From contig OZ004615.1 in NCBI GenBank assembly GCA_963924565.1, positions 14,384,001-14,448,000 of the forward strand: a stretch of DNA of 64,000 nt, read 5' to 3'. The notes beneath the pieces are model-generated. The model made no database searches. It saw only the letters and a program-made list of their open reading frames with translations, and was not told the origin of the DNA. The position numbers and the translations under genes are program-made. Of the stretch, positions 3,901 to 52,350 are shown piece by piece (the stretch's first letter is position 1; every line of letters starts with the position of its first letter). This stretch comes from Ascidiella aspersa. Its lineage: Eukaryota.

Positions 3901-6900
3901 GGAGCGAGACGATCAGTTTATTTATCCCCACGTTGATAAGTTCTCGGTGCAACTCATATCCCCGGTTGGATGGGAACTGATTCCAAACGCGAGGTACGAC
4001 TTTAAATCGCAGTAATGGGAAACAGTTCGCATATGCGTTTCACTAAATTGTTTCCATAGTTCAATACGAAAGAGTACAGCAAATAATTAAGGTGTAAAAT
4101 CCTAGCATTTTTGCTGTCACACGAAACACCATTTAACGTAGGCGTTTATCAAGAATTCCTATTGTCGTTTTTGCCACAAATTTGTACGGACAGATAATTA
4201 GACTTCGATCATATCTGTAACAAAACATGTTCTGTTCCTTGCGATGGAGCCCGAGTACAAGATTCAGTTTAATTGTCCCGAAGTTCTGATTTTTGTGCGA
4301 TTTTTATGTTTCCAGGGTTGACATGGAGGAATATGAGCATGTGACGTGCATGAAGAATGCATGGTTGAATCCTGGACCTTACACCAGTGTTCGACAGAAC
4401 TACGTCGTGCTTGGGACCACAAATGTCATGGGGGAGGAAATGGGATCTAGAGGAAAGGTAATCCGATAATTAATTTGTGAACTTGGGTTTTGGCATTGCT
4501 GTTATTGCAACATTGTCTCAACTATGTTCGTATAATACCAACTTTCATAAAAAATGATAATATGCTAATAAAGAACAAATATCTATTATGACATGTCATA
4601 ATTTTCTTTGTCTTTAACACTTTAATTATGAAAGCTTACAAATGCTACATAAAAAGCCATTTTTTTATTTTGGACCACATTTTGCGTTTTGGTGTTTTAA
4701 TTTTATTGTGTGGCTTCAAATATTTTTATTTTGTTTAACACTCGTTAACATACACAACAATTAAATAGTATGTCTCAATATTCCTCGCTTTTATTTTCCG
4801 TGACATATATCCAGGTACGCCAGCGACAGTACAATTAGTATTTCGAGTGGTATGTTGATATTGTATTTTTCAGATAATCATCATGGAAATCATAGAGGTA
4901 GTTCCGGAACCCGACAAACCACTGACCAAAAACAAATTGAAGCAGGTTTATTCAAGTGAACAGAAAGGCCCAGTGACTGCAGTATGTGGCGCCCAGGGCA
5001 ATTTACTAACTGCTATTGGACAAAAGGTTTGTTATATTATTCAAATCAACCTAATACGTGGACAACAGTTGATTTTTTTTCTTTATGTGCCACAGGGAAT
5101 TCGTAAAATTCCCCCATTTCAAACAGGCATGGATGTCGTTTTTAGTACATTAACTTGAAAGTAGGGAAACCCCATTCACTAATATAGTGGTTCTTAACCT
5201 TTTCTTTCCTTGTTTCATCTACTGGCTGTTTTTTTAGGTTAATTACTAAACGCATACGACCCAAAAAATGCCCGCGTACCACCGAAGAGCCATTGCTCAC
5301 CACTTGTTGCAAAACACTGCACTAATGCATAGAATAACTAAAAAAGAGATAAAACCATGCTTAAACTCTAAATATCTAACTGTCGATCACGTTTCCAAGA
5401 ACTATTTAGCTTAACATGATTTTTCGATATTGCTATTAGCTCAATTTGGAAATTTGCAACAAAACACCATGAATAAACTAAAGAATAACTTTCGTTAAAA
5501 AAATCTACCCTCCTAAAGGGCTTAAAAATACTATTCGTCACACAAAGAGTTCTAAAAAGTCGTTGTATTTATCACGTTGCGATTAATGCCAATACAAAAT
5601 AATTTACACAAAACGTTTCATAATGGTAGATTGCCGAAAAAATGCTAAATTTGTTTTATTAAATAAATTTGGTTTGTTTTTTATTTTCAATAAGCAAAAT
5701 TGATTAAAGGTATTAGTAAACACGAGAAAAAAGAGTTTAATTTTTAGCATCAAATTCGTCTGTCGCCTGCATGGTGGCGAGAAGAAATGTTGGATAGGTG
5801 ACGAAAAATGTCCAATTAATAGGGTCCGAGTCAATATCTCAAGCCAAGATACTCTAATTCACCCATACCATATAGTTTGTGCATTTCAGCAATGTTTCAG
5901 AAAATTATAAAGTAAAATTAATATTAATCAAAATTGCCTATTTTACCTTATTAATGTCATGTCGAATCGTGATTGTTTTGCCCAAAATATGGGTAATCGA
6001 TCGATATTATCTCCAGTGGCCACTGCTGTTTCAGGTGTTCATTTGGCGCTTCGATGAGAATCAGTCGTTGCGCGGTCTTGCGTTTGTCGACACCAACATG
6101 TACATCCACCAAGCCTTCAGTTTCCGTAACTTTGCAGTCGTGGCCGACATACAAAGAAGTGTCACCTTGTTGCGCTATCAGGTGGGCATTGCTTTGTTTG
6201 ACAAAATCAATGTAATAATTGAAAGGTGTATTTATGTTTAAAATCATATAAGGTGTATTTACTAAGATGTATCTTTCGAAAAAAATGTTGATAGTCATAT
6301 TTGTCTAATTTGGACTTTGACCTGATAATACACGGTTGTACGAAAGCTTGTCAGCTTTGCAATACAATAACTGATTTCCGATACTTTTGCAAAATAATTA
6401 ATTAGCTACTGCAGTAGCGTCATACATTGGAAATAAGTTCTTCGGATATTTATTTGTTTGTCCGAAGTCGAACTATCCAGGAAGCCTTTAATCAAGAAAT
6501 GTAAATTATGAAAAGTATATCTTGGTCAAAGTAATTTCGACAACTCAATTTCCTGTAAAATTTACTGTTTAAATTCTCAAGTTCCGGTGATTTAAAAACC
6601 AGGTCTGGTCAAATTTACTATTTTGTTTTCCAAAATTTCGTTTCAGGTTATGAAACAATAGTTCCTCCTATTGCGTTTTGCCGTACAAACGAACTCAGTA
6701 GTCGATTGGTCGCAATTATATTTTAGCAAACTATTTGCCCAGGACGAGTACAAAACCTTGTCGGTGGTGAGCCGCGACGTTCGCCCGATGGAGGTTTACT
6801 CTGCCAATCTTTTGGTGGACGGCACTTCGGTAGGATTTCTTGCATCCGATCACGAGAAGAACATCGTATTATTCAACTACTTACCAGAAGGTGGCTACAA

Positions 6901-9819
6901 CACTAACATAATATGAAATAAACTTAAATGCTATGTGCCATGTGTTCGATTGCTCGTATTATACAACTACGCGTAAAAGATCCGCTTTAGGTATATAGCA
7001 CTTGGACAATTATGTGGCAATAGAATTATGAGTTTCACGCCGAAAGCGTTTTGGAAAATTAACGGCCTTCTGGCAGCATTTTTTTTGTTTATACGGGGTC
7101 ACTGAGAACCCAGTATACCTTTAGTAGGTTTATGTGAAAGTAAATGAGAGTAATTATATATGTTGGGAAATAAGACCAACTGATTCTTTCGAAGTCATGC
7201 GGAAACAATTAATGTTATAAACATAGCGTTGGCCAATGTGCCTACTGCATACCAAATAATCTGATTTAAATCCATTTAAAGAACACAAGGTTCAATGTGC
7301 TACAGTATTTGTGTTTTCGTAGCAGTTTTAAATAAATATAAGGCTGTAAATGTTAAGAAATGTGTTTGTTCTCATTTCTAACATGTACCTTTATACGCAT
7401 TTTATGGCTTTTAACCGAAATAATGATTATTAAAAAGTATTTTTTCTAGATTTTGTGTGTTATCACGGCTTATTAATTGCCCTTTATTTTACACAGTTGC
7501 CGTTATACGTACAAAACATTCCAACAGTTTATTCTGTTTTTCATGAAAATAACTATCACGGCCTTTGCTTCCTTTGTATAAGAGCTGTGCACATGTTTTA
7601 TCGTTTAAAACCGGCCGTGAATTTTCTTCGCATGGCACCAGACCACGACAGTTACGGTGGTACTCGCCTGATGCGGCGCGCCGATATGCACGTCGGCTCC
7701 CACGTCAACTGCATGTGGCGGATCGGCTGCAGCCAATTTGATCGATCCACGCGCACCACCAACACAACATACGGCAGCAGTCAGGTCACAATGATGGGTG
7801 AGCGACAGTATTCGGAGTAAGCGCCGGGGTTTTGCACCCATGCGCAAAACCTAAGAAAATGAACAATTTGTGTTTTATTGCGAAAAAAGTATATGTGTTC
7901 AACAACTGTGTTCTATAGCCTTACAGAAGCTGCTCTTTGAACAACGATTACTGCTTACGTATCATTAGTACACCGAAAGCCATCGCTGGCGCATGGTTGT
8001 TTTTCGACTCGTTTTCTGCTGAGCCTGTGTAGCTCATTTGGTAGAGCGTCGGTCCCGGTATGGCCTGAGGTCGTGAGTTCGAACCTCACTGCAGGCTAGT
8101 TGTATTTTCTAGCCTTCCTTACTTGTATCATTGATCGACAGCTTCGGTGAGTCTGCGGTTGCTTTCGGTGTATTAATGAAATTTTTTTTTTAATATTAAA
8201 TAAAAATATATAAGTTATATTGTTGCACTGACGCCTGTTTTACGTTCCCGTTCTTTTTACTTTACAAAAGGATTTTTTTAAGTTAGTCATAAGTATAAGT
8301 TATTTTACCAAACAGGTCGTTAAAACTTGCATTTTATGTGGTGCGTTTTAAACGCATTTGAATGTTTTAATTTAGGCATAACTTTTCTTACTGACCTGTG
8401 CGTTAACGTTAATTTTAGTGATTTTATCTTTTGCGTTTGCGTTAGGATTTTCTATAGAAAAAAGTTTTAGGAGAAAGCAGCGAAACAAACCGGGACGTTT
8501 GCCTTTTATTATAATTTACGCTTTTTTAATTTTTAAATTGTCCCGCGTGAAACCTGCATGTTCGACCTGCGGCATATTTAGCCTACTATGCGTTTCAGGC
8601 TCGCTAGATGGTTCCATGTCATTCGCCCTTCCAATCACTGAGAAGATTTACCGACGCCTTCTTATGATCCAGAATGCCATGGTAACCGGTCTACAGCACA
8701 TAGCAGGGCTAAACCCGAAAGCCTACAGGTTGATATTTCTTATTAGCAGGAAAAATAATGTAGCAGCAAGTCCCAATATTGCACAAGGACGTAAAATATG
8801 TAAAACAAATAATCGACTTTTCTCTACGCAATTTTTATGTGGTCAACTTCTCTCAGATTTTTTTGCATTATTTAGACGTTTTTCTTTCAGAAAGCCAGAG
8901 TTTAATCTTACAGCCTGTTTTGTCTTTTCCTCGTTTTCGTTGCTAGATTTTACGGTAATTAAATATACAGAAAATGCCGTTTGAGGCGGTATTTATATTC
9001 ATTTTACAAAGGTTAGATCCTGTATTTTACTATTAGCGCCAGCGGAGCAGTAAGCGACAAACAGAAACCTGATGTTAATTGTTTCGCATGTCATAAAGAT
9101 ACATATTTTTAGTTATCAAGATAAACCAGTATTTCTACACTTTGATCTTTAAAATGAAAGTTTGCTATGTTGTGATAATAAATTTTAAACGATTTTATAG
9201 TTTGTGAGCTTTCAGTTTACAGTAATTTGATTAAACAGGCAATTTGTGACGCAACAACGTTCGTTGATCAACCCCATGAAGAACATACTCGACGGCGACC
9301 TCCTGTGGAAATTTAACAACCTCAGTCACATCGAGAGGCACGAAATGGCGAAGAAGGTCGGCACTACCTCTGATCAGGTGCAATGCTGAATGCTGTTGTT
9401 TTTATTGTTTCTCAGTAAAAATAAGGTTTATAAAGGGTTATAAGCAGTAACGCGGATGCGACTTACCCAGTGTCATTTTGAATTGACGAAAAGTCAAGTC
9501 AACAATATAAACGACTGATATAAAAATAAAATAAAAAACCATTAAAATTAGCACAAAAGACATGAAGCAATCTAATCGTTTTACTTTCAAAACTTTAGAT
9601 AAAAAGCTCAATTTAATAATAAAGTGTCAAATAACACACTTAGTTTCAACGCAAATCATTTACCTAAACGACCGAAGTCCAGCGGTTGACATGAGTAAGA
9701 GTAATTACAACACTGGGCTTACAATACCCTCAAACAAACAAACAATGTCAAAATAATATTTTTTTTTATAGATTCTTGATGATCTTGTGGAGATCCATAG
9801 ATCAGCTTGCATCATGTGA
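945..9819 (+). CDS. CPSF1: Cleavage and polyadenylation specificity factor subunit 1 (CPSF160), 3' part; 5' exons lie upstream of the window
   Basis: GT-AG exons 945-1041, 2061-2173, 2339-2434, 2732-2842, 3047-3199, 3367-3483, 3815-3993, 4316-4457, 4874-5026, 6035-6181, 6743-6890, 7642-7797, 8599-8728, 9239-9377, 9772-9819 (TGA) splice in frame. Peptides [61 protein letters not shown] and [10 protein letters not shown] match CPSF1. Confidence 0.96.
1540..1875 (+). mobile_element. tRNA-derived SINE in a CPSF1 intron
   Basis: Head with A-box-like TGGCTCAGACGG and B-box GTTCGAATC (~1540-1610), a unique body, and a 3' tandem duplication (TTTTGTCTGCTGAACCACTGT)x2. Confidence 0.65.
7962..8179 (+). 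mobile_element. Inverted-repeat-flanked element with a tRNA-like core (8023-8096)
   Basis: TCATTAGTACACCGAAAGCCATCGC ... GCGGTTGCTTTCGGTGTATTAATGA are inverted repeats. The core folds into acceptor, D and T arms, but the anticodon arm is irregular. Confidence 0.6.
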
Positions 9820-10854
9820 AATGTGTCAACTACAACATAGTATAAAAGAGGAAGAATTCCTTGCTATGTTGTTCCTACAAGGTTGCATGATCGTATGGCG
9901 GGTTTAGCCATACAATATTATGATAAACAACTTTAAGATCGTTCGAATCATGGATTGAGAGTTGCAATATTTGTGGACCACAATTACGCGGACACTCTTA
10001 AAAAGCATGGTGCTTTCAGAGTTTAAAAATGTAGTATTAAAGTTATTAAAAATGCCAACCACGGTGCATTTTATATTGTATACTCAAAAGCTTTAAAAAG
10101 GCGAATAATATTGCTGAATTACATTGAAAACCTTCTTTAATGACGAGAACGTGAAACAAACGAATTAACGCCATTAGTCATCAATATGGATACCAGATGT
10201 ACTTTTAATTTGTGAAAGCGTTTATGTTTGTCCCGATTCGGAGTTTCATTGTTGTGTGTCATACAATGCAGCTAATTAGGATCAGGTCATTTCTTTTGGG
10301 CAACCAAGCAACATATTTTGTTTACTGCGTTTATTGTTTTGCAAAAATTTGTTACGAAAAAGTTTCGTTTAGTATAAAAATATAATCAGTTACAAGTCGC
10401 AGCCAACAAGACAATCCAAAAATATGACGGTAGAGTATATAGTTGTCAAAACTATACGATAGAGAGATGGAAACGACATTATTGTTGCATTAAAGGCACA
10501 AATCGCGTTAAAATGAGGGCGGGATTTACGATGTAATCAAAGGCAAGAATAGGACAAACAAAAAGGCATATATTTTTGTAAGGCAGCACACAGGCGAGAG
10601 AAAACAATACAATTTACAATAATCGGAAAACGGGAACAGAAATAGCATTGGATATTAGATATATTGTTTGCAAACGCTTTGTTTGTGATAAAAAAATATG
10701 TACTTTTCGACATATAACGTACATTACACACATATATTTCTGAGAATGTAATTAGTTCTAAAACCTGAGAAAAACAATACATATATGATATATATATAAT
10801 ATACTTTGCATAATACAAAATTAAATTTCCTAAATGTCTGCGAAAAACAAGAAG

Positions 10855-13800
10855 TTAAAACTTCGTTAATTTGTTGTTATTTGATGCCGCACCTAACGAT
10901 GTCAAATCATGACAGTACTGTCGCCGGTCGTATGCCTGAGAATTGGAGTTATTCGGCATTTGGGAAAACGCACAATTCGACAAAGGAACCAAATCTTTAC
11001 TTGTAATTTCTGTGTTGGGGATGATATCATGTGCGATTCCCTGCAAAGCGTCTGCTTCGAACGATAACGACGGGAGAGAAAATATCTGATAGTCGTCTTG
11101 GGTAGTTGCGGTCGAATTTGGCGAGATTATCGAGCGTCCAGTTCCACTATCGTCGCTATAGTTTTTGTAGTATGCCATAACGTTAACATTTTCTTGGCCA
11201 CTGTTGCTCAGTTCCGTAAAGCTGTTGAGGTAACGCTTCTGTGCATCCAAGTTCTGAAACTGATAGCCGTCGTTTGATAAAAAGTGCTGCTGTTGTGGTT
11301 GTTCATAACCGTAACTGTTAGACAACTCTACTCTGGATCGCTTTTCGGGAGGCGAGACTGCATTTTGGCTGGTGCCATAGGCAGGAGGGGGGCACACAGA
11401 AAAGTCGTCAGGAAAGCTTCGTTTTGTTGCCCGCGTGCACTCTATAGGATAACCTTCCTGTGACGGATACGATTTTGCGTAGTAAGACTGATTGATGGCG
11501 AATGTGTCACTGGTGTTGCTGGTAGAAGTTTCCGCCGACGTAGAAGGAAGAAAACTTTCGCTTGACAGCAAATTCCGATTTTCGTTTTTCATGGACTGGT
11601 GTCCCGGGATGTTAGAGTAAGGAGTGTGTAAAGAAGCTGATTTGACATGTGTCTTACTGGAATTCTGCATCGAAGGTGCACTAACAGCAGATTGTGTGTT
11701 TGACATGGACATCACCTTTGGAGGCGCCCGACCGTTCTTTCGCCGAGAGGAACTAAATTGCTCGAGCGCAGTTGTTCGAACGCAGTGATTAGTATATCTC
11801 TTTGATAGGTGAGCCGAATCTTAAATAAAATAGGTTTTTTTATTGTTTAATCCTTTCGGTTAAGCAATTTTATTGTGCTTTGCCTTACAAATATAATTAT
11901 TTCTTTAATGTGTTTTCTATCAAATATTTTTCATAGTGTATGTCTTCGAGGGTTAAAGACGACCCACAGCGGGTTTATTGGTTTAATAACCTACTTGAAA
12001 TATTCGCCATCATTTGCTGAAGGGCCTTCTCTCCTATTGGTGCTTTTCCGTACCACATGGGCGAGTCCGGGGTAGACTTTCTTCTCGGTTGTTGGAAAAG
12101 CCTAGGTTGCTGAGCGTGGAGTTTAGATAGGTAGAGCTCGTAGCTACGAACCGGACAAAGATCACCTCCAGTCTCGTACATTCGAATCTTGAAAAGAGTA
12201 ATACAATTAAGTTTTAGTAAAAATTCGGATATCTGTAAGGTTATGTTATATTGCTGATTAGATTGTTTGTATACTAAAACAACTTGTTGCATCCATTTAC
12301 AATACACTTTTTGGACACTAACCTCCTCCGAATCTCCAGCGGCGTGCATAAGTCTTCCTACGTATCGCAGGCCGTTGACATCCCGATAGACGTTGAATGA
12401 GGTTTTCTTCAACTTCTCTTGGGCTTCGGAACCCTTATGGCAAAAGTGGAGTGTAATTTCGAACCAGACCTGCGGGAGAGGTAAAGGATAAGGGAATTAG
12501 AAGACCTCTTTCGAATAAAAAAGTAAAATTAAAAAAGGGAAGTATTACAATTTTTTACAAAGACGAGTTTGATATTTTGCTTTGTGTTCTCGTTTAAATT
12601 TACATTTGATTTATGTAATAAGAGACGTAAAATATAATATCTAGGTTTCGTTATAGGCCTACACACTTGCCTTTCTTAGCAGAGCCAAGGGATTGGATGT
12701 GCTCAATACTTGGCTGTCGTACATTTTCCGAAGGTCAGCGAGTGAGATAGGTTGCTTGTGCGTTATTGTCCTACCGATGCCCTTTAACAGCTTTAGTTGC
12801 GTCTCCAATCGCTCGTTGGATGTTCTATAAAAAACGTCAGTTTGTTAAAAAGCACCAAAAATGGTTTAGGTTACTGGGCAGTTACTAACACAATACGCAT
12901 TTGTGGTTTTAAGAAAGCTATTCAAGACAGAATTTATTGGACTAGGAAGTATAATGTACATTGCAATTGATTTCCGACCTGAATCTTTCGTCGGTGACAA
13001 TATCGAAAGCAACGCAGTAAGGCTTCCCTTTAAGATGTTTGTTGATCATGGCCCGGAGGTTGAAAAGACTGTTGCGTCCGTAGTAGTCGCCATTTGACTT
13101 GCGCACTTCGCTCCAGAAGCGACAAAGCATCTCGTTAAGTTCGACCGCCGTCTGCTTCTCGAAGTGGGGCGATATGTTCATCTCGGTACACCAAGCTATA
13201 TTCGAATAAAAAAATTAAGCAAAACGAAATTAAAAATTAACAAAATGTTTAGTACACATTTGGATTTCCGAAGAAAAGAAGATAAAGAAGAATATTAGAT
13301 CCACTTAAATCTTAAAACCATTAGGCAAAACTTACAAGAAAACATATTGGAAATCTAGGTAAAATATGATGATTCAAGTTTACAATTTACTTAATTAACT
13401 TAGTAACATAGACCGCAACCTAGTCGGTTAAGCGTTGTTTCGTTTTAAAATCTTTGCATACGACACTAAACAGTCCAACTACTTTAATTGCCCCAACACA
13501 TCGCGCAAGCTTCCAGGAAAGGCAAGTCCGAAAAATAACACGGGGGTACAATTGCGACGTTTCGCTTCTACGGTTGCAACACGTAATAGGCAGAGACAAA
13601 GGGTTCGGGGCGACTAAGATATACAAAGTGGCGCGCTCGCTTTCCCAGGGGCGGATCACCGCTCTAAACACAAGTAAACATTACAGGCCTTTCGAGGAGG
13701 GACGAATTTGCGGATAATCCCTACGAGCTGCCGGTCATCATCGGTCAACGTCAGGTACAGGAGCAACGTTGCCTGCAACGCGACAATTAGAAACCACTTT

Positions 13801-15907
13801 CAGGAGAAAGCAGCACTCAGAACTGGTTATGGGGTGCGCATCGAGGGGCGAGAGACTTCCGCAGTTCTTGGAAAGTGGTTTTCGGAAACGTGGATTTTGT
13901 GAGGGAAGATTGTGGGGAAATGGATCGAGGGTTAACACTAACGTAAAATCTCACGTTTTATATAACTTCGATAACTTACAAATGTCTGGCAAAAAGCTTG
14001 TGGCGCAGCACTATATTCCCAGCAATTTGTAAAGAAAGTAAATGTGCTTAAAAAGCGTGTATGTTTGATAAAAGTTTGCGCTAACGTTTTTGAAGTAAAA
14101 ACGAGTTTGCGTTTTCAACAATAGAAATAACCATTTGTATTTTTTGTTTTTTATATGTTGGCCACTTTCGTTAAATCAACTGTTTAATATGATTGCTTTA
14201 GTGTAATGAAAACATTATATATACAAGAACCGAGGTCGGATTGTTTTAATAGTCAATCCGATCAACCGTGTCACTTTTGTACCACTATTGTGACACTTAT
14301 AAATTATTAATATTAATAACTGGAAAAAAAAGTATAAACCACCATTTTATGACATCGAATATGCCTTGCACGATAATCAACAACAAGGGAGGGCGAGTGA
14401 CAGATATCGCGCCGTTAGTTAAAAGCAGGCGTCAAAGAAACAACCCCTGGGGGCGCGACTGTCCATGTTCTTTACATTTCGCTGTTAATTGACGTCTATT
14501 GTGTGCTTCACTTCTAATCGAGCCAGGGTAGTCACGTTAACTATCGGATTGATAGGCAGTCGCATTGTGCTGTTAATTGCCGCCTGCGCGACATCGGGCC
14601 TGACTTGATAGGGAGACCGGCGTTTTAGCCGAAACAACAATAATAAAACTCACGCAAAGAGATCTCTGAGGTCTTAAATCTTTTATCGACAAACAGATAT
14701 CAAAACAGTGTCTGGCGAAATAAATTTTTGCAAAAATGTTCACAGCCAACATATGCTATAAACGAGGGCTTACCTTTAAGTACCTTGACTCCCCACTTCT
14801 CGTTGTAGGCTGTTTTCTTACTAGAATTTTTTATTTCTCCCATTTCTCCATGAATGTACTGCTCGGGGCTGAACATCTCTCCTCCTCCATAAATCTCGCC
14901 GTCAAATCCTCCGCCAATTTCTGCATCCATACTATTCTTCCTGGAAGATGTGTTAGATGAATGCAAATCTACGTTGGAGTCGTTAGAGAGGTTGCGGTCG
15001 CCATGGATACCAGAGTAGTTGGTGTCGATAGAAGTAGCTCCTTTATCACAGGGGGCATTTGAAGAATCAAAAGCAGCCGGAACATAGCCACCAAAGATTT
15101 GGGTTTGTCCCTCACTTCTTGTATCGACCAGGGTCTGGCGCTTAGAGTTAAGCTCTATATTTGGCAGGTTGTTTGAAGAGGATAAGATGCCAGTAGTTTC
15201 CATGGTGCCACATCCCTCTACTCCGCTATCGTTGCTTAGGCTGTAGTCGCGGCGTCGATGGCTCATCATTTTAACCGGGGACATTTCTTGCGTATCCCCA
15301 TCAGCGGATGAATGTTTCTGTTTAGACGACGGGTTGGAGGTTGGATTACCGTTCTTGGAATTCGATTTCATTTTAAAATCCTGTAAAATGTCGTAGGAAT
15401 CTGAAAGGCTGTGAAGTAAGTTTTCGTCTTCTGGAAAACCTTGGTTGGAGCATTCCTCAACATTGATTTGGTTATTCGTTGCTAATATGCCTTGGGGAAT
15501 ACTCGGATTAACAACGAAACGTTGGGTGGACCCCGTGAAGTTGGCAAGACCTCCGAGAAATGCAGACTGACCTATCATGAATTCCTCAAGATCAAAACTG
15601 TCATCAAAGATGTTGCTGCTATGGCTGGTTTGATCTGAAGAGGCGAAGAATTGATTTGTATTTTCATAACAACTATTTTGATGAATTTCATGTTATGTAA
15701 TTTTTGTTTATAATAAACCTTTCATGTTTTACATATATTACAAACGTAAAAATATATTTTAAAGAAAGTTATTCGCCTATTGGTATTTTTGTATGCGATA
15801 AGTTTATTTCGGTTAAAATAAATATTATCTTTAATTTTTTAAATAAAATTACCTGCGAACGTCGATTCATTTGCGACCTCAAGGTTTTGCAGCTTCGGTT
15901 TTGCCAT
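10855..15907 (-). CDS. Crypton-derived DUF3504/tyrosine-recombinase-like domain protein (KCTD1/KIAA1958/ZMYM/QRICH1-type domestication), ~863 aa
   Basis: Exons 15907-15853, 15634-14774, 13195-12979, 12824-12671 (GC donor), 12469-12323, 12187-11995, 11819-10855 total 2592 nt in frame. Motifs: KWGVKVLKAW, LCRFWSEVRKSNGDYY, NPLALLRKVWFEITLHF, CPVRSYELYLSKL, WYGKAPIGEKAL, SKRYTNHCVRTT. Confidence 0.88.
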
Positions 15908-18900
15908 CACAAAGAGAGTTTTACGTTGTCAGCGTGAGATGGACGATATGTAAATAATATCGTTTGAAATATTTCATGGACCGAGCATTGACCAAGTTGT
16001 TATTTTATCCAAGTGCTTATTGGTAATTTATCAAGAAGCGGCCTTAATTATTCCTGACAATTTGGAAATTACCATAAAAATTCACCGTAAATTACTTATT
16101 ATGTTAGCTGGCCACATAAATAAGGCAACTAAATAATGTGCTAATAGCTAAATCGCATGTGCTAATTTCTGAATTACATTTGCTGATATATTTTTGTTTT
16201 AGTTCTAGCAAATTTTTAAAATGTTAAGCCACTTTATAAAAATGTACTATCGAAAATGCTAAACTTTTTCAGATAAACCTGAGCAGGTTGCTGCCTTTGC
16301 TTGAACAAAACTTCAACTAACGTTGAACACCTGTAAGGTGCTCGTTGACCGGCAAACGTGCGACTGCAAGTGCTCACCAGCCGTTATAGTTTGCGACGGC
16401 GCTTGCTTCGCTTTCCAGGAAAGCCACGCATTTCGGCGGAGAGTGGCCCGAGGAAGAAAAAGGGAGGTGACCGTGCTGCGAGGATGGTGAGCGAGGGAGA
16501 TCGCAATTGACTGATTGCTGCCCCTCGTCGTATTTGGCGCACTCAGGTGTATATCATAGGCCAGGAAGCAGCGCGACAATGCACTTTCAATAACAGAAAC
16601 ACGTCCGTTTTTAAACAAACCACAGTGTACGCCTGGACGGCTTGATTGGCCGTCGCAACCAAAAAAAAACTTTCACCTACTTTTAGGAATTAATAGAATG
16701 TTGTTTATTTATATAGAGATTGCTTTAATGTAATATTTTAAATCCCATGTTTTTCAAATATCAAAGACCATTCAGGTTACATTAAAACAATTATGTCAGC
16801 ATTAATAAAGCTATAGTTCACTTAAGAACTTTTAAATTGAATAAAAAATGTTTGTGTTACGCGATATGCCTCATCTAAACCTTGTTTGTTTCAGCGAAGG
16901 TTTTTCGACAATCGTATTGCGTTTTACCCTGCGGAATTATGCACAAATAAAATTCAAAATGGCGTATGCAATTCTCCGTTGTAAACCGCTCGATGGTTGA
17001 AATGCGCTGAACAATACAATCACAAATCAACACAAAATAATAAATATGCTGTACTAGACATTAAAACCACCCTAGAAAGGCAATATGCGTTAAGGAGTTT
17101 GACTAATTAACGCGGTACGCATGGCAGACAGTCGTAATTGTGTCCTGAACTTCGCGCGCACGAACTCATTTCGCACCTAAATAACCTTGAGACAAGCGCC
17201 GATCATAAATTACGCTATTCTGGAACAAAAATATCCGGCTGCGATGATGCATTGGACGCACAAATCGGTTTACACTAGGTTTTGTTAGTCGCCGCTTCGC
17301 TTTTTCAATTTCCGGTTTTGTGTCCTAACATTCTTTGGCGGCATTTATTCTGTTTAAATCAAAAACATCCGACAATGATTTGTATGGGGAAAACCGATTT
17401 TTGTTTTTGTCATTGGTAGAATATAGTTCTAAATTTATTGGTTTCAACATCTTATTGCAAAATATTTTTCTACTGTTCACGCGTCATAAGAAAAAGAGGA
17501 ATTTCAAACGGATAGGTTTGACAGGCAGCATAGGCTATGACTAGTGGATAATTTGTTTCAAGTACAAAATATTGTAAAACAAATATTAAGTAGGCCTATT
17601 TTAATTACGGAAAATTTGTCTTATATGCTAAAGTTCATTTTCAAATTGTCTTTTCATTTAAACACCTTAATTTCACTTTTGAATAAAAAAGTTTGTTTGG
17701 ACAAGCAAAAAAGGACAAAAAAAAATTCTTGCTTAATTTGAGGAGGATGAAAACCTCCTGGGTCATTTCAGGGCGTCACTTCTTAGACAACAGCGCGACA
17801 GTGGCATTAAAGGCCATTGTGATTTACGATGCGTATCGCAGTAATCACCTTGTATTGCAGCACACGTCACCTAAATGACTTAAGGTAAAATCAGCAAGTT
17901 GAATGATGTCATTGGTCGGACGCCAACCAGTATTTATGTATGAAATCGAATCTTTTATCGATTGGTTCTAGTGAACAACTTGCATTATTATTAAACCATA
18001 ATTCTCTAACTTTTGTATAACTATTATAATCTTTAAGTTTCATCATAAAAAAAATAAAATAAACAAAAACGCATTATTCGATTTTCTAATACACTTGCTA
18101 AGCATGAAGCGTCATAATGCGTTTCATTATACTATCAAACGTTTCCCCAACCTTTTTGCAATAAAACCTTTCTTGCTGGTCCCATTATATATATAGAATT
18201 TTGGGCCCCGAACAGCTACTCTTATAATGAACAGTCCTGCAATGAAGAGTGTCTATATAGAGTAAAAACTAAGGCCAAACTTTAAATTCATAGCACATTA
18301 CATGGGTGTTACGTGATTTTTGGGGGCGCGTTTGGGCGATTTTTATTGTAAACTAAGCATTGTGTAGGACTCCGTCTAGCGGTCGACCCAAACATCTAAA
18401 CCGAATAGATCAGTCTATAGTTACTCTAGCAGTGCTTTGCAACCGGTGTACCGCAAGACCATACGAGGTGTGTCGCGACGTCACCGAAAATTCTTACGTT
18501 TTTTTAATTGCACTTTTTAGAGTAGAAATAAACAAAATTGGTACATCGAGACAAGCAGTTTACCCTTATGTAATAAACAAGGGGTAACTTATTTCCTTAC
18601 TATTTAAAACTAAAACCTATGTTACGTTCAATCGCCGGAAGTCAAATTTAAAAACAGCATTTTTAACTTAACACCTGGAGTATAAATATACAGCAACTGC
18701 TTTCTAACCACGATAAGATAAGATCTAAAATCGTCTAAAAAATATATAAACCTAAGTCCTAAGTTCATGGAAATAATGCTAAAAAATGGACAAAATAATG
18801 CCAAAAAATGTAGTGATAGGCAATGGGATGATCGGGCAGAAAAAATGTATAACGCCAAATAATCGGCGACTTCGGTGCGTTTAATTATAAAGCGCTCATT

Positions 18901-19234
18901 TTTCTCTGGGCAGCCTGGAACTTTTGATGTCCATTGTCGATCGTCATATGTTTCGCAGGTGTGCACGGGTAAAACATAGAGTTGTAACTTAGGTTTGCGA
19001 TAAACATGGCGTTAAATCTTTAAACATAAACACAGTGGCAAACATTTTATTGGCGGCACATAATGTAAGTGCAAAACGATAACGACAAAATAACACGCAA
19101 AATCGTTTTATAAGTATTCAGTCAATTTCATTTCTATTGACCTTGCATTCCTTCTTGTAAGGTTCTCGCATGGTGACCTTTTCTTTAAATAAATTCCATA
19201 TTTGCATTCGTCTAAGAAGGACTTTTAGCAAAGA

Positions 19235-22200
19235 TCATTTGATCAACGAAAAATCAAGAGCAGCAAACACGGAAAACTCGACTGCAAGTATTTCGTCTTT
19301 CCCTGCTTTAAACGAATGTTCGAGCGCCTGGAAAAAATAGCAAAAAAACATGGTGACAAACTTGCCGAATTGATTACAAAATACACTCAAATGTTTAAAA
19401 GTTCGCAAGATGAACTACTTCTCAAGCAAAGCTGGTTGAGCTTAATTGTTTCTTGTGAACCACTCGTGTTTCTATATATTTTAAAATATCACTTTAATTC
19501 ATTTAGATTGACTTTTTACGCGTAATTTTAGATTGGATACCAGCTTAGTTTTACAAAGATAAGACTAACTATATAGGATAGAACATTGTAAGCTGATAAC
19601 AGGGATTGGTAATAGGGTAAAAAATTACTCAAAAAAGTCTCTACTGAACTGCTTTAATGCGATTCATATTGCGAATTCATACTCAATACAACCCTGAAAT
19701 TTTTTTCTAACACTACCATTTTGAGTCGAGCGGCTAAGTTCGAAAGAGATCATTTGAAAGTAACGCTTCAAACAAAAAAATTCATCGTAATAAATGAAGC
19801 TTTATAATTAATCTCAAAGCCATAAAGGTCGAATTTATTAACATCACCTCGATAAAGACGTTTCGATGCGTACTTGTATCACCACCAATTAATGTGACCT
19901 TTTTTGCTTTGGGATTCATTATTATTAAGCTACATTACAGATCCATGCATAGTAATATAAATTAAATTCGACTAAAGGTATATAACCCTGACTATAATCA
20001 ATGATATATGACATATTTTCTGGGTCATTCCTGTCGAAGCTTCATAATCATCGGCGCTTCCCAGAATTTGGGTCATAAATGTGATTTTAGTAACTTATTC
20101 AGTAATTACGATATTTTGTTGGAAAAATCGGACCTAACCACCACGTTTGTAATTTTTTAATTCGTAGTATAGCACAATAGCCATTTTGTTAAACAGGAAA
20201 ATGGCCAAAAACTTTAAATGATGACTTCCCTTCCACTCACCGACAAAACTTGCCCAGCCTCGCCCGACCGGAGGTCGCCGTGCAGTTTGGCCGACAGCAG
20301 GAGACACGCGGCAGTCACCATGTGCCGGTTCGTCTTGGCGATCTTGCAGGCGAACACGAGTCGGTAGAAGAAGGCTACCGCCATGTCAAGCACCCCCGTG
20401 TGAAAATCGAAGCTCCTCGCCACCCTCTGCATGCGCTGCTGCAACGACCGCACCTTGGACAGGGTTATGCCGACCTGACAATAGTGGACGTGCGCTGGTT
20501 ACAGGATATAAGGATTTGTAGTTCGCTTCTGTTACTAAAATGTTTACCTGTGCGTTGTGGCCGGATGGTATGCGGTAAAAGTTCCTGTTTTTAGACTGGT
20601 TGACTATTTTTATTCAGGCGCACTTACGAACTAAAAAGTTACACATTTTATCAGTGGTAAGTATTGGATCGTAAAATTTGACCTTATTTAGAGACTGATA
20701 AAACTAAAGGATTTTTTCATTTAAAACCATATATTATATCAATTAAAATTCTTATATAAAAGAAAATTTTATTTTTAAACTTAATAAAATGCAGATGTTC
20801 TCAATCTTTATTTGATTGCGTTTTTACTGTTAGTACATTTGTATTACCTGGATAGTGCTGCAAATAACGTTTCAAAAGATTAAACACCGGTTAGCTTCTT
20901 TAAGGAAAAACTAAATTAGTTTTAACTCACAATTTCTAAATAAATCTAATTATAAAACTTACAGATGGAAAACTTTGGGAAAACTTCAGGTTTAAATTGA
21001 ATCGCAATTCACTGGGTTTCGTGTATTCGATTACGCTGACCTGGACAAAAAACAGGTGTGGTGTCTACTAAAATGAAATGAAAGTTTGGTTTCACAGGAT
21101 TATTAGCCCAAATTTAATCGACGTGAAAATGCGCCAAACACACATGGCATAGGTAATGACAGAGGCAGCGTGCGTGTAAAGGTTGCATTTATAACCATTA
21201 ACCAAGAACCGCAATATTTTAATTTATGTTAAGATCAACGACAAACAGCATTCGGAGACGTTTGGCAACAAAACAAATGTTACATGTGGCCATCATTATC
21301 AAGCGCAAGAAGTTTTGTAGTATCCCTATTTTTCACTTTCTCTTGGAAAAAATTAGAAACAAGTGTTTCTCAATGGATTTGTATTAGTTCGGGTCTACAT
21401 GTACATATCAACCCAGAAAAAGTTCCAGCTCATCCGGCCTGGGGAAAGTCCCCATTTTGCATTTTCAAAATGGCCGCAATAAAATACAGGTTTTTGCTCA
21501 TATATCAGCTTCTACATCATCTATGAAAGAGATTATGGTGTTAAAGTATATGTTTTAAGGGTTAAGGAACCGAAATAGAGCATTAAGAAGTACACTCAGT
21601 GGTCGCCATTGTGTTTTTCACGTTTTTGAACATTTCTGCTATTTATTTTGAGGGGTGTAAGAATTACAAATACATCATTTCTAAAAAAAGACTTCCACAA
21701 ACGGCCATGCAGTCACTGGATTAATATTATACAGTATCGACAATTTATAGTAATTTCTAAATTTCGGTCAACTAACACCAAAGGGTAATACACTCACTAA
21801 TAAACAAAGCCTTAAAGCCAGTTAATTTTACAATTATATTAAGTCCGATCAACTGAACAATCCTCATCACTCTCGTAGGTCTCTTTACTGTTGGAACAGT
21901 TACCACTGCAATAGCCACATACAGTAACGCATGGTATAAAGTATTTTCTGCAATTAAATTTGTTATGGCTACATTGGTTTCCAGCTTTGCATTTACAGCA
22001 TATTGATTTTAATAGGGCTACCATATTTTCAGCACCCAAAAAGAGGACATTTTGCTACGAAGAGAGTTATAAGGGACGATTTAAAATCCTAAGTTTTAAA
22101 GTGAATAGTCACACACGCTTTAATAAATGGCCTTTTTACATGTGAGGTTCGGTTGCAATTTTTCTGGCGCAATGTTTGCAACAACAATGAAAAAGGTAGA

Positions 22201-25200
22201 ACTTATAAGGCAATTTCAGCATGTTTCGTGGCTACAGTATTTTTTTGGAAATAAATACCAAGTCTCGCCTAAAAGTCTTGTTGAAAGTATAAGCAACTAA
22301 CTTGAAACATTTTTGGCATTTTTGAGCGTCCTCGGAGGACCATTTACTTTTCTTGAGAAAAGCGGGCAAATCCAGATAGTTAAAGAAAGGCAACTGCCAG
22401 TTGTCGTCAGACTCGGAGGATTTCATCTCCTAAAGAGCTGTTTGGGTTGTATTGGACTTATAATGGCGGGTTAAGGTTTGGAAGATGTGGCCTACCTGGC
22501 CTTTTATATGGCCCGCATACTGTCACTCATATGTTAAAGGGAGCTGCATATTCAAAATCTCTCCGAGTCCATTTTTTTAGCAAATGCAGCTGTTAATCGT
22601 ACAATGATGACACTTCAACAAACTAAGCACGAGTCCATTTAAAATACTTTTTGACTATGCGAAAAACTTTCGCGCTAATAGACCTTCTACATCCGGTTTG
22701 TTTACGTTTTGATGCTGTCTTTTGAAGTTTTGAACTAGATCAGCGCTTCTTTACCGTTGCGCCATTTTCTGTGAGACCTTTCTGGGGTTGGTTTTGGCCC
22801 GCGACTAGAAAAGGTTGCCGACCCCTGGTCTATAACGTGAACATTTGACCAAATTTAGATTTTTCTGGTTTTCTCATTAACTTGTCCATCCTAAACAAAG
22901 CTAACGGAACAGGTTTCATCTCATATTTAAATGCTCTTTCGATGTCTCTATCTCTTTCAGCAAGAACAATAAGTCGGTTAAAGAGAACTGTTTTTTTTTT
23001 CAACGTAAACCTTTTTAGGTCCAACTTTTATATGTTTTTCAGGAGAACTTGGTGGTTTGCTTTTATAGAAGTTTTAATAGGTTCGAGGTGAGAAGCATGG
23101 TCCAAAATTTCTTGGATAATTTGGCCAATATGCCATGCTTGTTCACAGTTAACAGAATTTGTGTCGGTTGTAGTCAGTCCTGTTGAGAGTGAAGCTATCA
23201 CAAGAGGATCGTTTACTGGTATAAAATAATTGTGATACGTAAACCATTCAACCATCGTAGTGAAACATTCATGGTCTTTCTGTAGACGTATTTTTGCCAA
23301 ATCTTTGTAACTTTGATTGTATCTTTTAAAATCGACTCTTTCATCCATCAGCCTCTCAAGATGCTTTAAGTGTGATAAGCTAGAAACCCAAACTTTTACT
23401 GAGTTTGTGTGGCGAAGCCTGCCGCTTGTGAGACTACCTTTATATTTGGTTTTCCGCATAAGAGTCTTCTCTGTTGTCATGTCGGAAAACTGTTCATCAC
23501 TGTTACGAGTTGTGTGAAATCCATTCGTCCGAAACATCTCGTATGTATGTGGAAATTTGTCTTTTAGTCAAACATTTCTAGTAGATATAGCCTTCCACTT
23601 TTGACATAATGGCCATCACTGGCTGCTGCAAATATGTAAAGCATAGATGTTACTGCCTGAAGGTGGTGTCAATCGTCCTGCGGCTAGGTATTGCCTAACA
23701 ATTCATTATATGTCCAATACAACCCAAAAAGCTCTTCTGGAGATGAAATTCTCCGAGTCTGACGACAACTGGCAGTTGCCTTTCTTTAACTATCTGTATT
23801 GCTTTAATCCACAATGGCTGATCGAAGTTTATTATTACGGGAATATCATGTGAACAGCTAGATATACATTTTCTGGGTGTAGTATAAAAACTGTTGACAT
23901 CATTTGGGGATCATTTGGATCATTAAGAATGATCGGCAGAAACTCGATCGTCGACTTCTCCACCAAACCGGTATGATACTTGTGCATAAATCCAGACCCG
24001 TTAGGATGGCTTATTTTGGTCTCAAGTGCATTAGGTATAGGTAATCATACATTCAGCCATATAAGATCTGTTGTTTTAAATGAAATCTCCGTTTTCATAT
24101 CTATAAGTTGTTTGATTGGAATATACCTCCTAAATAAAAGTAGTCCATGTTTCGCAGCCATATTTAAAGCATAATAAAGGTCAAGCGAAACAACACATGC
24201 ATAAAAATACATACTTGTACTGATAATAGTAAATTGAAAACAAATTTGGCCTAAATAGCTATACAAATATTACAAACACTGACGATCTGAAATCTAAATA
24301 AATAAATAAATATTGAATTCCACCTGATGGTGAATTCCCGCACCTCCACACCCCGTCTATAGTCTTCACGACTAACTAAGGTTTAAAATGCTCTATTTGG
24401 TTCCTTAACCCTCAAACCATTTACTTTAACACCATGATCTCTTTCATAAATGATGTAGAAGCTGAGATATGAGCAAAAACCTGTATTTTATGGCGGCCAT
24501 TTTGAAAATCCAAAATGGGGACTTTCCCCAGGCCGGATGAGCTGGAACTTTTTTTTGGTTGATATGTAGACCCCAAAAAATACAAATCCGTTGAGAAACA
24601 CTTGTTTCTATTTTTTTCCAAGATTGGTCCTTTTTTGCTCGAAAATAAGCATACTATTGTATTACGTCACAAGGTGATGTCACAAAGTCACATTAAATGT
24701 GACGTCATAAAAAAATAAATATTTTTACCACTACACAATTTTGTTAACTTTTAGGTTGGGTAGCGGTTTCTTTCGATACAAAAGCTATAATACAAAAATG
24801 TTATCGATTCTCGTAAAGCTAAAACCGCCTTTACATGGTTTCAGTCGTCAAAACTGGCGCTGGTCTAGGATCCTACCGTTTAAACAATTATTAAATCTAC
24901 GCACAACATTTGGGTTAGCATTTGAGTGTGGGTGGGTCACACTGACTCAATTGTTATTATAATAATAATTTAATAAGAATCCCACCCACACCCATGTGCT
25001 ATCCCGCATCCAAACCATGTTAATGTGCGTTGTGGTACAGTGGTAGGGTTATAGACCAGCGCCTAAAATTCTAATTTTGATGGTGCAATTGGACATATGA
25101 CGCCTTTGGGATAAAACCAATTTTTTTTTAATTAATTAGACAGTCAAAATGTGTACAAAAAAGTACAGTTTGGATGGGGCGGGTCATGGCCATGTGCCCC

Positions 25201-40500: not shown

Positions 40501-43500
40501 TACTACTTACTCGGCAACTGCAATGAAGCTGTTAAATACCACAGTGAGGTAAGGAGAATTTGCATGCAAACTGTTTGTTTTGCATAATGTAAGATTATGT
40601 TACATGATTACATCCATTTAATTATAGCTCCAGTATACTGGCTAATAAATGTCTCTCTCCCCTTTGTGCTTTAACTGAAATTTGTTTTTTTAAGCTAAAG
40701 ATTTTAAATCTGGGCACCAATAAATCACTTTATATATAGCGAGAAACCTAGACAATTTGGTGTATTTTGTATGAAGTAGGCAAAAAACCTAACTAATTAA
40801 ATAAAATCTGAGTCTTTTGTTCATAATTTCTTAATCATTGTTAACTTTTTCTTACTGTTGGATTTTACTTTAAAATAGAAGGCATTTTAATTAATAAGTT
40901 ATTGTTTATTATATTGATGGCAGTCCATGTCATGCAGTGTTCTACCATTTGCATAAAAGTAGTTTTGTTTTATTTATTGAAAAATTGTAAAACTTATCCT
41001 TTGAAATTATTCTTGTTGTTTAAATGTACAATTTTTTAGTGTAACAAATCTATATTGTAAAATGTAGAGACTCGCCATAGCAAAGGAGTTTGGTGACAAG
41101 CCAGCACAAAGAAGGGCTTTTGCAAACTTAGGAAATACCCATGTTCTATTGGGAAAATTCCAAGTGGCTTCTGAATATTATTTGTGGGTATTTTGTTTCA
41201 ATTTTTAATATTTAGATTCAACTTTCCTAGTATTACAAAGTAGTGGTAGGCAAAGAGCTATTGAAGTATATATCAATATTTAGTGTAGTTATATCAAATT
41301 AGGCCTGTAAATTATTTGTTGAAAAAATGTCTAGTAATTATGTTGTTTTTTCTGTAGGCAAACTGTATCTATTTCACGCCAACTTGGCGACAGAGCTTTT
41401 GAAGCCCAAGCTTGTTACAGTTTAGGTTCTACATACACTCTGTTGGGTGATTACAAAAGAGCAATTGAGTATCATCTGCGTCACAAACAGATCGCTGTTG
41501 AATTAAATGACAGGTATAAAGAAAATATCTTATTTAAAATAAAGAAGGTAGTATGAATATTTACCCAAAAACATGTATGTTTACTCAAATATCATAATCA
41601 TTAACAGAATTCTGCACAAATGTGAACACAATGCTATAATTCATTTAGTGGTTAACTGTGTTGTTGGCTTGCAATGTTGTACCTAATAGTTGCTGACATT
41701 AGTCAACCAAATTTGATGCTAATTTTTTTTAAAACCATTATAAAGTGAAAAGTATTTTGTTGAAGTTTAGGGTAGCTTGTAATAGGCTGTACTACTTTGA
41801 TGAAGTCTACAATATAAATGTGACCTCTGGATCCGCCCTTCAAGAAATTTTAGGATTATTGTATGAACATCAATTTTGAAATACGAATTATTAAAAGCTG
41901 TACTAAATCACATACCTACAAACAGTCCGAATAGTTTGCTATATTCTTGCATTGTTTGACATTAGTTTACCAATTAATGACATGCCAACAAAAGCTTCCC
42001 TAGTTCCATGTCCTTAAGTGGAACAACGGGTTGCTTTCAGATTTCTATATATTTCAGGTATTGCAACTACAAGTAGGTAGTGATATAATGGTTGTTAAGT
42101 TTTACTAATTTTCTCCAGTGTGAAGGTCTGAGGGTGGTACAGGCTGTGAGTTCAAATCTCCAACCAACCTAGCCGTTTTTAGCAAAACATTAACCTGCTT
42201 GCAAATAAATTGTTGCCTGATATTGTTGCTTCTAATGCCTAATGAGAACACGGTTTTATAGTTCGGTTGGAAAGTACCTTTTTGCGAACAATTGCTGTGA
42301 AAGAACACTGATTTTATGTTAAATTTTGACACAGCTATATTTTCTGCTTTAACATGTTCTAAAAAATAAATATTCTTTGTATTTAACCTACTTATCCAGA
42401 CTGGAGTCTTTATGACTAAATAATATTAAGCCCATCATGACATATTGTTTTGTTGTTGGTTATCATACGTTTGCATTTTGAGTTAAACAGTTGAGAGCAA
42501 CCTATTGGTTGAAGTAACACGCATATTGGGAACACTTCTGATTTGTCACTAGTGATACAAAAGCAACCAGTTGGAAAACACTGCTACATGAAATTTCTCT
42601 CTTGCCTATTCCCCTTGCCCCCTGTTTATAATGTTGTGTACATGGAGATGCTAGTTTTATATATTTTTCTGTAGATATGTTAGGTTTTTTTCATTTTTGT
42701 ATATGACTATACCTTCTAGTCTTTTTTCCCAGGGTCGGTGTTGGTCGTGCATGCTGGTTACTCAGTAATGCTCATATGTCACTGGGAAGTTATTCAAAAG
42801 CATTGGAGTTTGCAAAAGAGCAGCTTCAAATTTCATCTGAGGTTTGTATTCGGTTTTTGTTTTTCATATGTGCTAAAAACAATGTAAAAACTGTTCCGCA
42901 ACAATTAAATTTGTTGCAAATTATATATAAATATATATATATACCACCCTTTTTATAATTATTCCGTCACTTTTAAAGCTTGGCGATTTAGCTGGCAAAG
43001 ATGTTGCAACTAAGAATGTACAGAAGCTCACCAACTTAGTAGAACAGAGCAAATCATTCATAAATGCGGAAACATCTAAAAAAAGACGGGCTAGCATGGA
43101 AAACATGGAACTTCTACGTCTCACACCAGAACAAGTAACATATCCTTAAAATAGTGAACATCCTGCAACTTTGACATACTTAAAGTTTCATCATAATGCA
43201 ACTTTGCCATACTTCAAGTGGTGGTTGTTTTGCCCCCTTTATAGACTTGCTATGGTTGTTTAATTTATTTTCAGTTTTATTTTTTCGACAATCTAGTGTT
43301 AATTTGGATCAGTCGGTGGGTATTTTTATTATTGATAAGAAGTATACATATTACATATGCTATTTCGAGAACAAAATTTATCTTTAGGTTAAGATGCAAC
43401 ACACAAATACAGAAAAGTACAATGGACGCTCAGTATCGCTTTTTCCTGATGAAAATACACAAGTGTGTACTGTGTGTTTGGGTTTGTTGTAATTGAATTA

Positions 43501-51700: not shown

Positions 51701-52350
51701 TTTACCAATACTTCATTTAGAAAAGGTAATTAGGCAAAATATATTTTAGGTTCGGTTCAACTAAATATTCAAATCACTACAACTGATGAAATTTTTGCAA
51801 ATTTCATTTTTTTGCAAAATAAATATATAACAGTCCAATAATTAAAATAAAGATAAAAGATAATTGTTTAAAATGACAGCCGAAATAACTTGATAGTGCC
51901 TAATGGCAGAACTAAGGCATATAAAGGATGAAGCTTACAAATAGGGCGACTCAAAACAATAATGTATTCCGGGGGTAGTTTGGCGTCTCGGGTTGAAACG
52001 TTAAAAAATGTTTACTGTTTTTTAAGCAAATATACAGCTGTCTTCATTGTTTGAGATATGCGTGCCAAACGTTTTACTTTCAATCCACTTTTTTATTTAA
52101 TAATTTTCATTTCGAAGCAACTTACATGAAACCAAAAGACAGGCGAAAGAAAGGCAAGTGTGCAAGTTCCATTCCCGACCAAACCTCCGTGGACTGCAAC
52201 ACCTCGGGCTCCCGCCAGAGTTCGGTAGTTCTGCGCCCAATCCTCGATGTAGGCAACTGAGTTTAAATCTATATTAAAACCAGAAAATGTTAATACACTT
52301 TTGAGGCGGTACAGATCATCTTCGTTGATATAGAAAACTATCACTTAAAC

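Follow-up and report, generated by a model that had tools for sequence, protein, structure and literature searches.

A Crypton-derived recombinase gene shared by tunicates has very probably lost DNA cleavage and may serve as a host regulator

What can a transposon's recombinase still do once the residues that cut DNA have gone, and how is a host gene made from one to be told from a mobile element? The question is raised by a gene of Ascidiella aspersa that occupies positions 10855-15907, on the minus strand, of a 64,000-nucleotide (nt) stretch of the genome (positions 14,384,001 to 14,448,000 of contig OZ004615.1, assembly GCA_963924565.1; hereafter the window). Its seven exons, which are predicted from the DNA sequence and not derived from RNA, join into 2592 nt encoding 863 amino acids (aa) with no internal stop, which agrees with the original prediction of an intact 7-exon open reading frame. 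The Crypton tyrosine-recombinase (YR) core (aa 291-569) lies between flanks of 290 and 299 aa whose Ser/Asn richness, also part of that prediction, is borne out by composition (Ser/Asn 14.8%/9.3% in the first 290 aa and 17.1%/9.0% in the last 299, against 6.9%/5.1% in the core). Pfam DUF3504 matches the exon 5-6 frame with 43.5 bits, against a curated cut-off of 29.7 (54.2 bits for the Phallusia protein P0001), and sequence comparison makes the Crypton origin of the core clear.

The state of the active site was judged against relatives drawn from a search of 1.84 billion representatives, which gave 3967 matches, the best 150 of which were listed. From 173 proteins, those covering most of the core, together with the predicted model, make up 163 rows, 26 belonging to the tunicate family and 137 lying outside it. 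Family rows were chosen by the motif HFCHKG, so that its invariance is partly definitional; the same rows stand out by their high identity and group as a single clade. The closest non-family relatives among the best 150 of 3967 are 33-42% identical. The two motifs that frame the pocket are as follows.

12431..12448, minus strand: HFCHKG, aa 437-442, with K441 at the Arg I position (Cre R173) and E444 at Glu/Asp I.
11776..11790, minus strand: NHCVR, aa 553-557, in which His II (H554) and Arg II (R557) are kept; it aligns on XerA HVLR.

Both motifs stand where the original prediction had read them, and NHCVR is found in 24/26 family rows, the remaining two stopping upstream of it. The first column follows the published alignment, where the arginine of Crypton FAKRG falls on that of Cre LLRIA (R173), and the family profile aligns HxxR...GH...Y with XerA. 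Arg fills the K441 column in 109 of the 137 non-family relatives, GH...Y occurs in 72 and the full R-H-R-GH-Y set in 64. GH...Y is present in 0/26 family rows, and the beta2-beta3 loop lysine motif, which 51/64 intact relatives carry, is likewise seen in 0/26. The loop of the window protein has no Lys at all, the family loop being variable in length and sequence, and no conserved tyrosine is common to the family in the 60 residues after the His. The window protein thus keeps Glu I, His II and Arg II, with Lys at Arg I, and has lost the loop Lys, His/Trp III and Tyr, a tail of 299 aa standing where the original prediction had seen a replacement of about 300 aa for the GH...Y segment. The Cre structural match of a modelled ortholog (P0002) stops at Cre residue 307, upstream of W315 and Y324.

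Aligned in this way, all 26 family rows have lost both the cutting tyrosine and the loop lysine of the Crypton family. According to the accessible text of Gibb et al. (2010, PMC2943603), no residue of Cre other than the tyrosine and the lysine is strictly required, and because both are missing here recombination is very likely impossible; by analogy with Cre mutagenesis, we regard it as close to certain that the protein would not cleave DNA. The original prediction of a catalytically dead domain therefore stands as far as the loss of the tyrosine segment goes, but the Arg-to-Lys change that it also used is weak evidence, and the loss of the loop lysine had been missed. That change was considered as proof of inactivity and rejected, as the same available text describes Cre R173K as synapsis-defective yet able to recombine in vivo. 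The same contrast of intact and dead DUF3504 proteins is drawn in the accessible part of Krysinska et al. (2026, PMC13465315).

The exons on which this reading is built are listed below.

15853..15907, minus strand: exon 1, predicted start, aa 1-18; its phase fits exon 2, and a MAK start is also present in Phallusia P0001.
14774..15634, minus strand: exon 2, aa 19-305, Ser/Asn-rich N-terminal flank and first recombinase-core helix.
12979..13195, minus strand: exon 3, core-binding (N-terminal) recombinase domain (Pfam QRICH1 domain, E 6.4e-8; the model of ortholog P0002 shows helices here).
12671..12824, minus strand: exon 4, with a GC donor at its end.
12323..12469, minus strand: exon 5, start of the catalytic domain, with HFCHKGSE and the loop without the catalytic lysine.
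11995..12187, minus strand: exon 6, DUF3504 core (PF12012, E 4.5e-11 on the exon 5-6 frame).
10855..11819, minus strand: exon 7, HxxR helix, then the 299-aa Ser/Asn-rich tail and the stop codon.

Five introns are GT-AG and one, intron 4 (12470-12670), is GC-AG with a donor of strong consensus (AAG/GCAAGT); its position is that of an ordinary GT intron in the related contigs L008, L009 and L010. The model aligns with full-length relatives over all core junctions, which are introns in other tunicate contigs, and tblastn matched exon 2 (39% identity, E 2.6e-44) and exon 7 (34%, E 2.6e-32) to Phallusia P0001. Exon 1 is the part of the predicted model of which we are least sure; the N-termini of the Ciona and Clavelina proteins are longer than that of the window protein, and a tblastn search for an additional upstream exon found none.

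Two of the introns have features of their own. Intron 5 (12188-12322) is 135 nt long, in frame and stop-free, and its retention would add 45 aa to the loop without the catalytic lysine; its counterpart in L010 is about 3 kb, and the open, in-frame 135-nt form is not conserved. Intron 2 (1578 nt) holds two GC-richer blocks (13420-14030 and 14350-14660), one with repeated GCTGTTAATTG, which are possibly regulatory. Three open frames in this intron and one upstream frame had no credible Pfam match, and Rfam at gathering scores gave 0 matches across 8500-19500.

Whether the gene belongs to the host was judged from its distribution, selection and introns. In a protein search 21 proteins matched the exon 5-6 frame, headed by Phallusia mammillata and Ciona intestinalis LOC100186276, with others from Clavelina, Styela and Oikopleura and unnamed marine proteins, and orthologs are found in Phallusia, two Ciona species, Clavelina, Styela and Oikopleura. 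Core identity to the window protein is 248/278 in Phallusia, 229/277 in Ciona, 218/279 in Styela and 217-226/279 in four Oikopleura-type proteins, and flank identity to full-length relatives is only 14-35%. Selection was estimated by the Nei-Gojobori method from related loci on metagenome contigs, numbering 11, with L011 omitted as a duplicate of L010. The ratio of nonsynonymous to synonymous rates (dN/dS) is 0.013, 0.014 and 0.027 in the three of 55 pairs that are unsaturated; dS is saturated in the other 52 (dN 0.03-0.28), among them all 10 pairs with the window gene. Two points count against an easy reading of these ratios, namely that all three come from relatives, with none involving the window gene, and that codons of the variable loop and the intron borders were dropped. 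The dN/dS comparison that the original prediction had proposed thus gave, on the related loci, values far from neutral, and the core sequences are clearly under strong purifying selection.

The positions of the core introns recur in L010 (5/5) and in the Oikopleura-type L008 (4/5), which probably places the origin of the introns before these lineages separated. Spliced transcripts in relatives are suggested because the core is unbroken by introns in L001 and L002 while L004-L006, of the same type, have intron 6. Each named ascidian species has one gene identifier (Oikopleura has three records, which may be alleles or assemblies) and the 64-kb window holds one copy, in contrast to one intact Crypton relative with three near-identical proteins on different contigs of a single species. 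The window neighbours gave no match to the 11 related loci, most of what these hold being limited by their short length or taken up by introns of the gene itself. Terminal repeats were sought in 8500-19000 with none convincing; the original prediction cited the absence of terminal inverted repeats and target-site duplications, but as an argument for domestication the point is worthless, for animal Cryptons have no terminal repeats and their absence here is uninformative. Its wider claim, of a domesticated Crypton-derived gene, is supported by the orthologs, the shared introns, the low dN/dS and a single clade with 100/100 support, and taken together the comparisons support a domesticated host gene common to all tunicates sampled.

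Considering next what such a gene might do, recombinases of this kind clamp their two domains around DNA. In the window protein the two domains persist as far as the HxxR helix, and the losses are in the chemistry and in the C-terminal helices. The AlphaFold model of ortholog P0002 (mean predicted local distance difference test score, pLDDT, 86.4) matches QRICH1 with Z 15.0 (root-mean-square deviation, rmsd, 14.2, 230 aligned, 18-21% identity in fold matches), Cre with Z 13.4 (rmsd 6.2, 255 aligned) and XerA with Z 10.8, and Foldseek ranks the three in the same order, from which the core is predicted to have a tyrosine-recombinase fold. When the family profile was run against PDB sequences, poly-Gln matches and QRICH1 (E 0.44) were all that came up. 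Of the 274 core positions 175 are near-invariant, 30 of these being Lys or Arg (K441 and R557 among them), and the core carries a net charge of +17.

No Pfam family matches the frames of exons 2 and 7, which carry the flanks, and the window protein has neither a BTB domain nor an MYM finger. Scans aimed at these domains agree: BTB and the KCTD1/15 C-terminal domain were found in none of the window frames or six family proteins (control P0072 positive), and zf-FCS (MYM) in none of the window frames or family proteins, although the same scan found it in the unrelated P0107 and P0113. The absence of both had been part of the original prediction and is confirmed. The flanks do contain short motifs.

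15576..15608, minus strand: acidic-aromatic motif FDDSFDLEEFM, aa 28-38; pattern in 11/18 full-length family proteins.
15213..15230, minus strand: DSG motif, aa 154-159; DSG plus V/I/L/H/N in the N-terminal flank of 17/18 full-length proteins.
11377..11388, minus strand: PPAY (PPxY), aa 687-690; in 5/6 ascidian-type and 0/12 Oikopleura-type proteins.
11332..11355, minus strand: basic motif SPPEKRSR, aa 698-705; K[RK]xR in the tail of 6/6 ascidian-type and 0/12 Oikopleura-type proteins.
11131..11154, minus strand: second DSG-type motif, in the tail, aa 765-772; tail copy in 4/6 ascidian-type proteins.

We take FDDSFDLEEFM to be activation-domain-like, DSG phosphodegron-like, PPAY a WW-ligand-like motif and SPPEKRSR nuclear-localisation-like. 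On balance we favour, with somewhat better than even confidence, a host transcription regulator in which a non-cutting DNA clamp is joined to predicted disordered regulatory flanks. The core would still grip DNA through the core-binding domain and the Lys/Glu/His/Arg phosphate pocket, the protein would act in the nucleus, and the short flank motifs would recruit cofactors and set turnover; that these three roles hold jointly is also, in our judgement, rather more probable than otherwise.

Several points weigh against this proposal. DNA binding, nuclear location and regulation are all properties that we infer from sequence, literature searches found no experiments on the tunicate DUF3504 family, and the modelled structure is that of P0002 and not of the window protein. 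The flank motif patterns were picked after viewing the alignment, with no control for chance, and none of the 12 Oikopleura-type proteins has the PPxY or the basic motif; in that group a different Pro-rich motif (10/12) and Gln-rich tails are seen. Core conservation, moreover, may reflect the fold or protein contacts, because the QRICH1 domain binds SEPHS1 and KCTD1 keeps as many of the Crypton consensus residues (46/53) as the window protein does (46/53).

From these reservations comes the rival that survives best, in which the protein is equally dead and domesticated and the core is a protein-binding scaffold, like the QRICH1 DUF3504 in Zincore, that would reach chromatin through partner transcription factors. 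Zincore is described in the available text of PMC13538652 as a zinc-finger coregulator complex, and the best fold match of the P0002 model is to QRICH1 in the Zincore structure 9hjt (entry title: Zincore complex with SEPHS1 and ZFP91 on DNA), over the same span, model residues 39-312 on QRICH1 473-771 (of 776). The binding of SEPHS1 by the QRICH1 DUF is stated in the accessible part of a preprint (10.64898/2026.10.26.761783), QRICH1 also has Lys in the Arg I column of a profile alignment, and so many near-invariant core positions would fit a large partner interface. Against this, QRICH1 is remote, both by the profile and by identity in the fold matches, it has lost His II and Arg II while the tunicate family keeps both wherever the rows reach them, and the tunicate core remains strongly basic. 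We consider the scaffold a real possibility, though clearly less likely than the clamp.

The second rival concerns not function but origin. Trees were built from 145 rows (FastTree, with the 129/132 other rows of enough coverage), 70 rows (quick) and 38 rows (careful), the rows of the two smaller sets being hand-picked across clades with long branches left out; WOC, ZMYM, QRICH1 and KIAA1958 are in no tree, as they fall outside the best 150 of 3967 matches. The 38-row tree unites the tunicate family with 100/100 support and short inner branches, and KCTD1 joins intact Cryptons in a 98/96 group that leaves the tunicates out, a split that the other two trees repeat. The DUF3504 phylogeny called for by the original prediction thus gives a single tunicate clade, apart from KCTD1 in all three trees. 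Its suggestion of an independent or lineage-specific domestication held in that the gene is probably separate from the BTB and MYM-finger genes, but the lineage is all the tunicates sampled and not one species.

It is nonetheless conceivable that the tunicate gene and the DUF3504 exon of KCTD1 go back to one domestication in the tunicate-vertebrate ancestor, a history compatible with either function. An approximately unbiased (AU) test of a joint tunicate and KCTD1 clade gave a log-likelihood 12.4 lower and p 0.0716, so that the joint clade is not rejected, which speaks against our preferred separate origin. Both proteins end their match to intact Cryptons just past the HxxR helix, both are without the loop lysine motif, they have in common four residues rare in other relatives (R378, Q402, R410 and Q446), and the catalytic residues that each has kept would fit a single ancestor. 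Set against this, 0/1000 bootstrap trees join the two, the position of KCTD1 inside the group with intact Cryptons is well supported, KCTD1-type rows are only 32-35% identical to the window protein (rank 68-124 of 137, below many Cryptons), and weighted residue sharing places them at 32-98 of 135. Truncation after the HxxR helix is not a mark shared with KCTD1 in particular, because GH...Y is missing in 45/116 long relatives, and the KCTD1 domain is single-exon while the tunicate one has five introns, four of them common to distant tunicate contigs. A joint origin is, on this evidence, improbable. It is just as doubtful that a single Crypton capture lives on by itself in the tunicate gene and as the extra exon of KCTD1 in vertebrates; if true, the tunicate gene would stand for an ancestral DNA-clamping regulator, joined afterwards in vertebrates to a BTB protein with a part in neural-border development.

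Our best reading is therefore that the capture took place independently in the tunicate stem; the trees do not single out a sister Crypton lineage. The gene likely derives from a CryptonA transposon, by a single capture before the split of ascidians and appendicularians that is likely separate from those behind WOC/ZMYM/QRICH1, KIAA1958 and KCTD1. With CryptonA recombinases (intact invertebrate DUF3504 proteins and the ATF7IP-YR proteins) it shares the fold, the core-binding and catalytic domains and 46/53 consensus positions, at no more than 42% identity; it differs from them in its Lys at Arg I, the lack of the loop Lys, His/Trp III and Tyr, five introns in the domain, long flanks and strong purifying selection. 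KCTD1 isoform b resembles the window protein in a dead Crypton domain that ends past the HxxR helix, with His II kept and acidic N-terminal and low-complexity linker regions. The window protein is without the BTB and KCTD1 C-terminal domains, both of which the KCTD1-type P0072 carries, and the catalytic pattern is reversed, KCTD1 isoform b having kept Arg I and lost Arg II.

QRICH1, WOC and ZMYM2-4, which are transcription co-regulators, also have a dead Crypton domain of the same structural span beside a long disordered region, and QRICH1 too is free of zinc fingers; there the domain is C-terminal, unlike its central place in the window protein, and the sequences are remote. Orthology to this group was rejected, as His II and Arg II are kept here, in contrast to their loss in WOC/ZMYM/QRICH1 according to the available text of PMC3212892, and the QRICH1 match to the family profile is remote (E 0.44); Ciona, besides, has its own WOC gene (XP_002127329). 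KIAA1958 is likewise a stand-alone dead DUF3504 with neither BTB nor MYM fingers, known only from jawed vertebrates, and orthology to it was rejected, with five core introns here against its intronless domains, and KIAA1958b and L differing from the window protein at both catalytic motifs in the published alignment (a comparison confined to KIAA1958b and L).

A third rival returns to the active site and supposes residual chemistry, in which a Lys-Glu-His-Arg pocket activates the phosphate and the nucleophile comes from water or another protein, as in a nuclease or a shared active site. In Flp the tyrosine is supplied in trans. The family shows no variation at H554, R557 and E444 and always has a basic residue at 441, and the activity of Cre R173K in vivo is in keeping with such a pocket, but the general-acid lysine motif has gone too (0/26), as has His/Trp III, there is no conserved downstream tyrosine, and no partner recombinase gene is seen in the window. 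Lys at Arg I also accompanies loss of the tyrosine segment in 8/9 long non-family rows, and QRICH1 has Lys there as well in the profile alignment, so that Lys at Arg I with lost GH...Y looks like a pattern of repeated inactivation in dead Crypton domains. We think residual chemistry very improbable.

Finally, an active or recently active Crypton element is scarcely credible and was rejected, for in spite of clear Crypton homology, and although terminal repeats are not expected in animal Cryptons, both essential residues are missing, named ascidians have single identifiers where an intact relative has three near-identical proteins, the introns are old and shared, the 64-kb window holds one copy, and dN/dS in the related loci is near 0.01-0.03.

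The gene lies between a CPSF_A-domain gene (plus strand, about 4900-8700) and a cyclin-fold gene (minus strand, about 20200-20500). Elsewhere in the window, two overlapping minus-strand frames at 52807-54368 make up a frameshifted, hAT-type transposase-like gene (Pfam zf-C2H2_12 and DUF4371), a 179-aa minus-strand frame at 23028-23567 resembles a transposon remnant and has no credible Pfam match, and 52093-52344 and 61672-62055 have near-identical translations, being two copies of one short sequence that is probably a repeat element. Exons with TPR and GoLoco motifs at 41338-47202, on the plus strand, belong to what we take to be a GPSM/Pins-type gene.

Other Crypton-derived proteins came to light among the matches. 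P0048, from a sea turtle, and P0056 join ATF7IP to a recombinase with the full catalytic set, a fusion reported only from birds and chimaera in the accessible text of PMC3212892. Fusions of DUF3504 with BTB are seen in P0081, which adjoins KCTD1 in the trees, and P0166, and the remaining fusions (P0107, P0113, P0033 and P0030) comprise an MYM-type finger in a spider protein and tandem DUF3504 in starfish and amphioxus; all six of these proteins may be further domestications.

The tunicate family itself has been met before. Kojima and Jurka (2011, PMC3212892), in the portion available, list Halocynthia BAB40645 with orthologs in Ciona (XP_002125964), C. savignyi and Oikopleura (CBY34656) as a possible further domestication, giving it two sentences and a table row, with no analysis there of its catalytic state, selection, introns or kinship with KCTD1. 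P0010 is XP_002125964.2 (LOC100186276) and CBY34656.1 falls in the cluster of P0013, so the window gene belongs to their family; it is the same gene with the same architecture and a core 80-89% identical, only the species differing. The BAB40645 sequence was not recovered by protein searches, and the 2011 paper was the one place in the literature where the accessions turned up, its six supplements being without them. No later study of the tunicate DUF3504 gene was found, in a literature search that was thin in subscription journals, nor anything on dead recombinases as regulators; the ESM Atlas gave only DUF3504 and integrase clusters, nothing new. With the family flagged as a candidate domestication in 2011 and its kind known, the surprise is small, and the novelty implied by the original prediction does not hold.

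What the analysis adds is a family, apparently unstudied, that would represent at least the fifth independent domestication of a Crypton recombinase in animals and has a core whose conservation across tunicates, even in Oikopleura, matches that of KCTD1 across vertebrates. Unlike human DUF3504 proteins, the tunicate protein has the recombinase core as its sole folded domain and retains the HxxR pocket; it may therefore offer the cleanest case for asking whether a dead DUF3504 alone binds DNA, and Ciona, which permits knock-out and chromatin mapping, would make the function of a dead DUF3504 directly testable.

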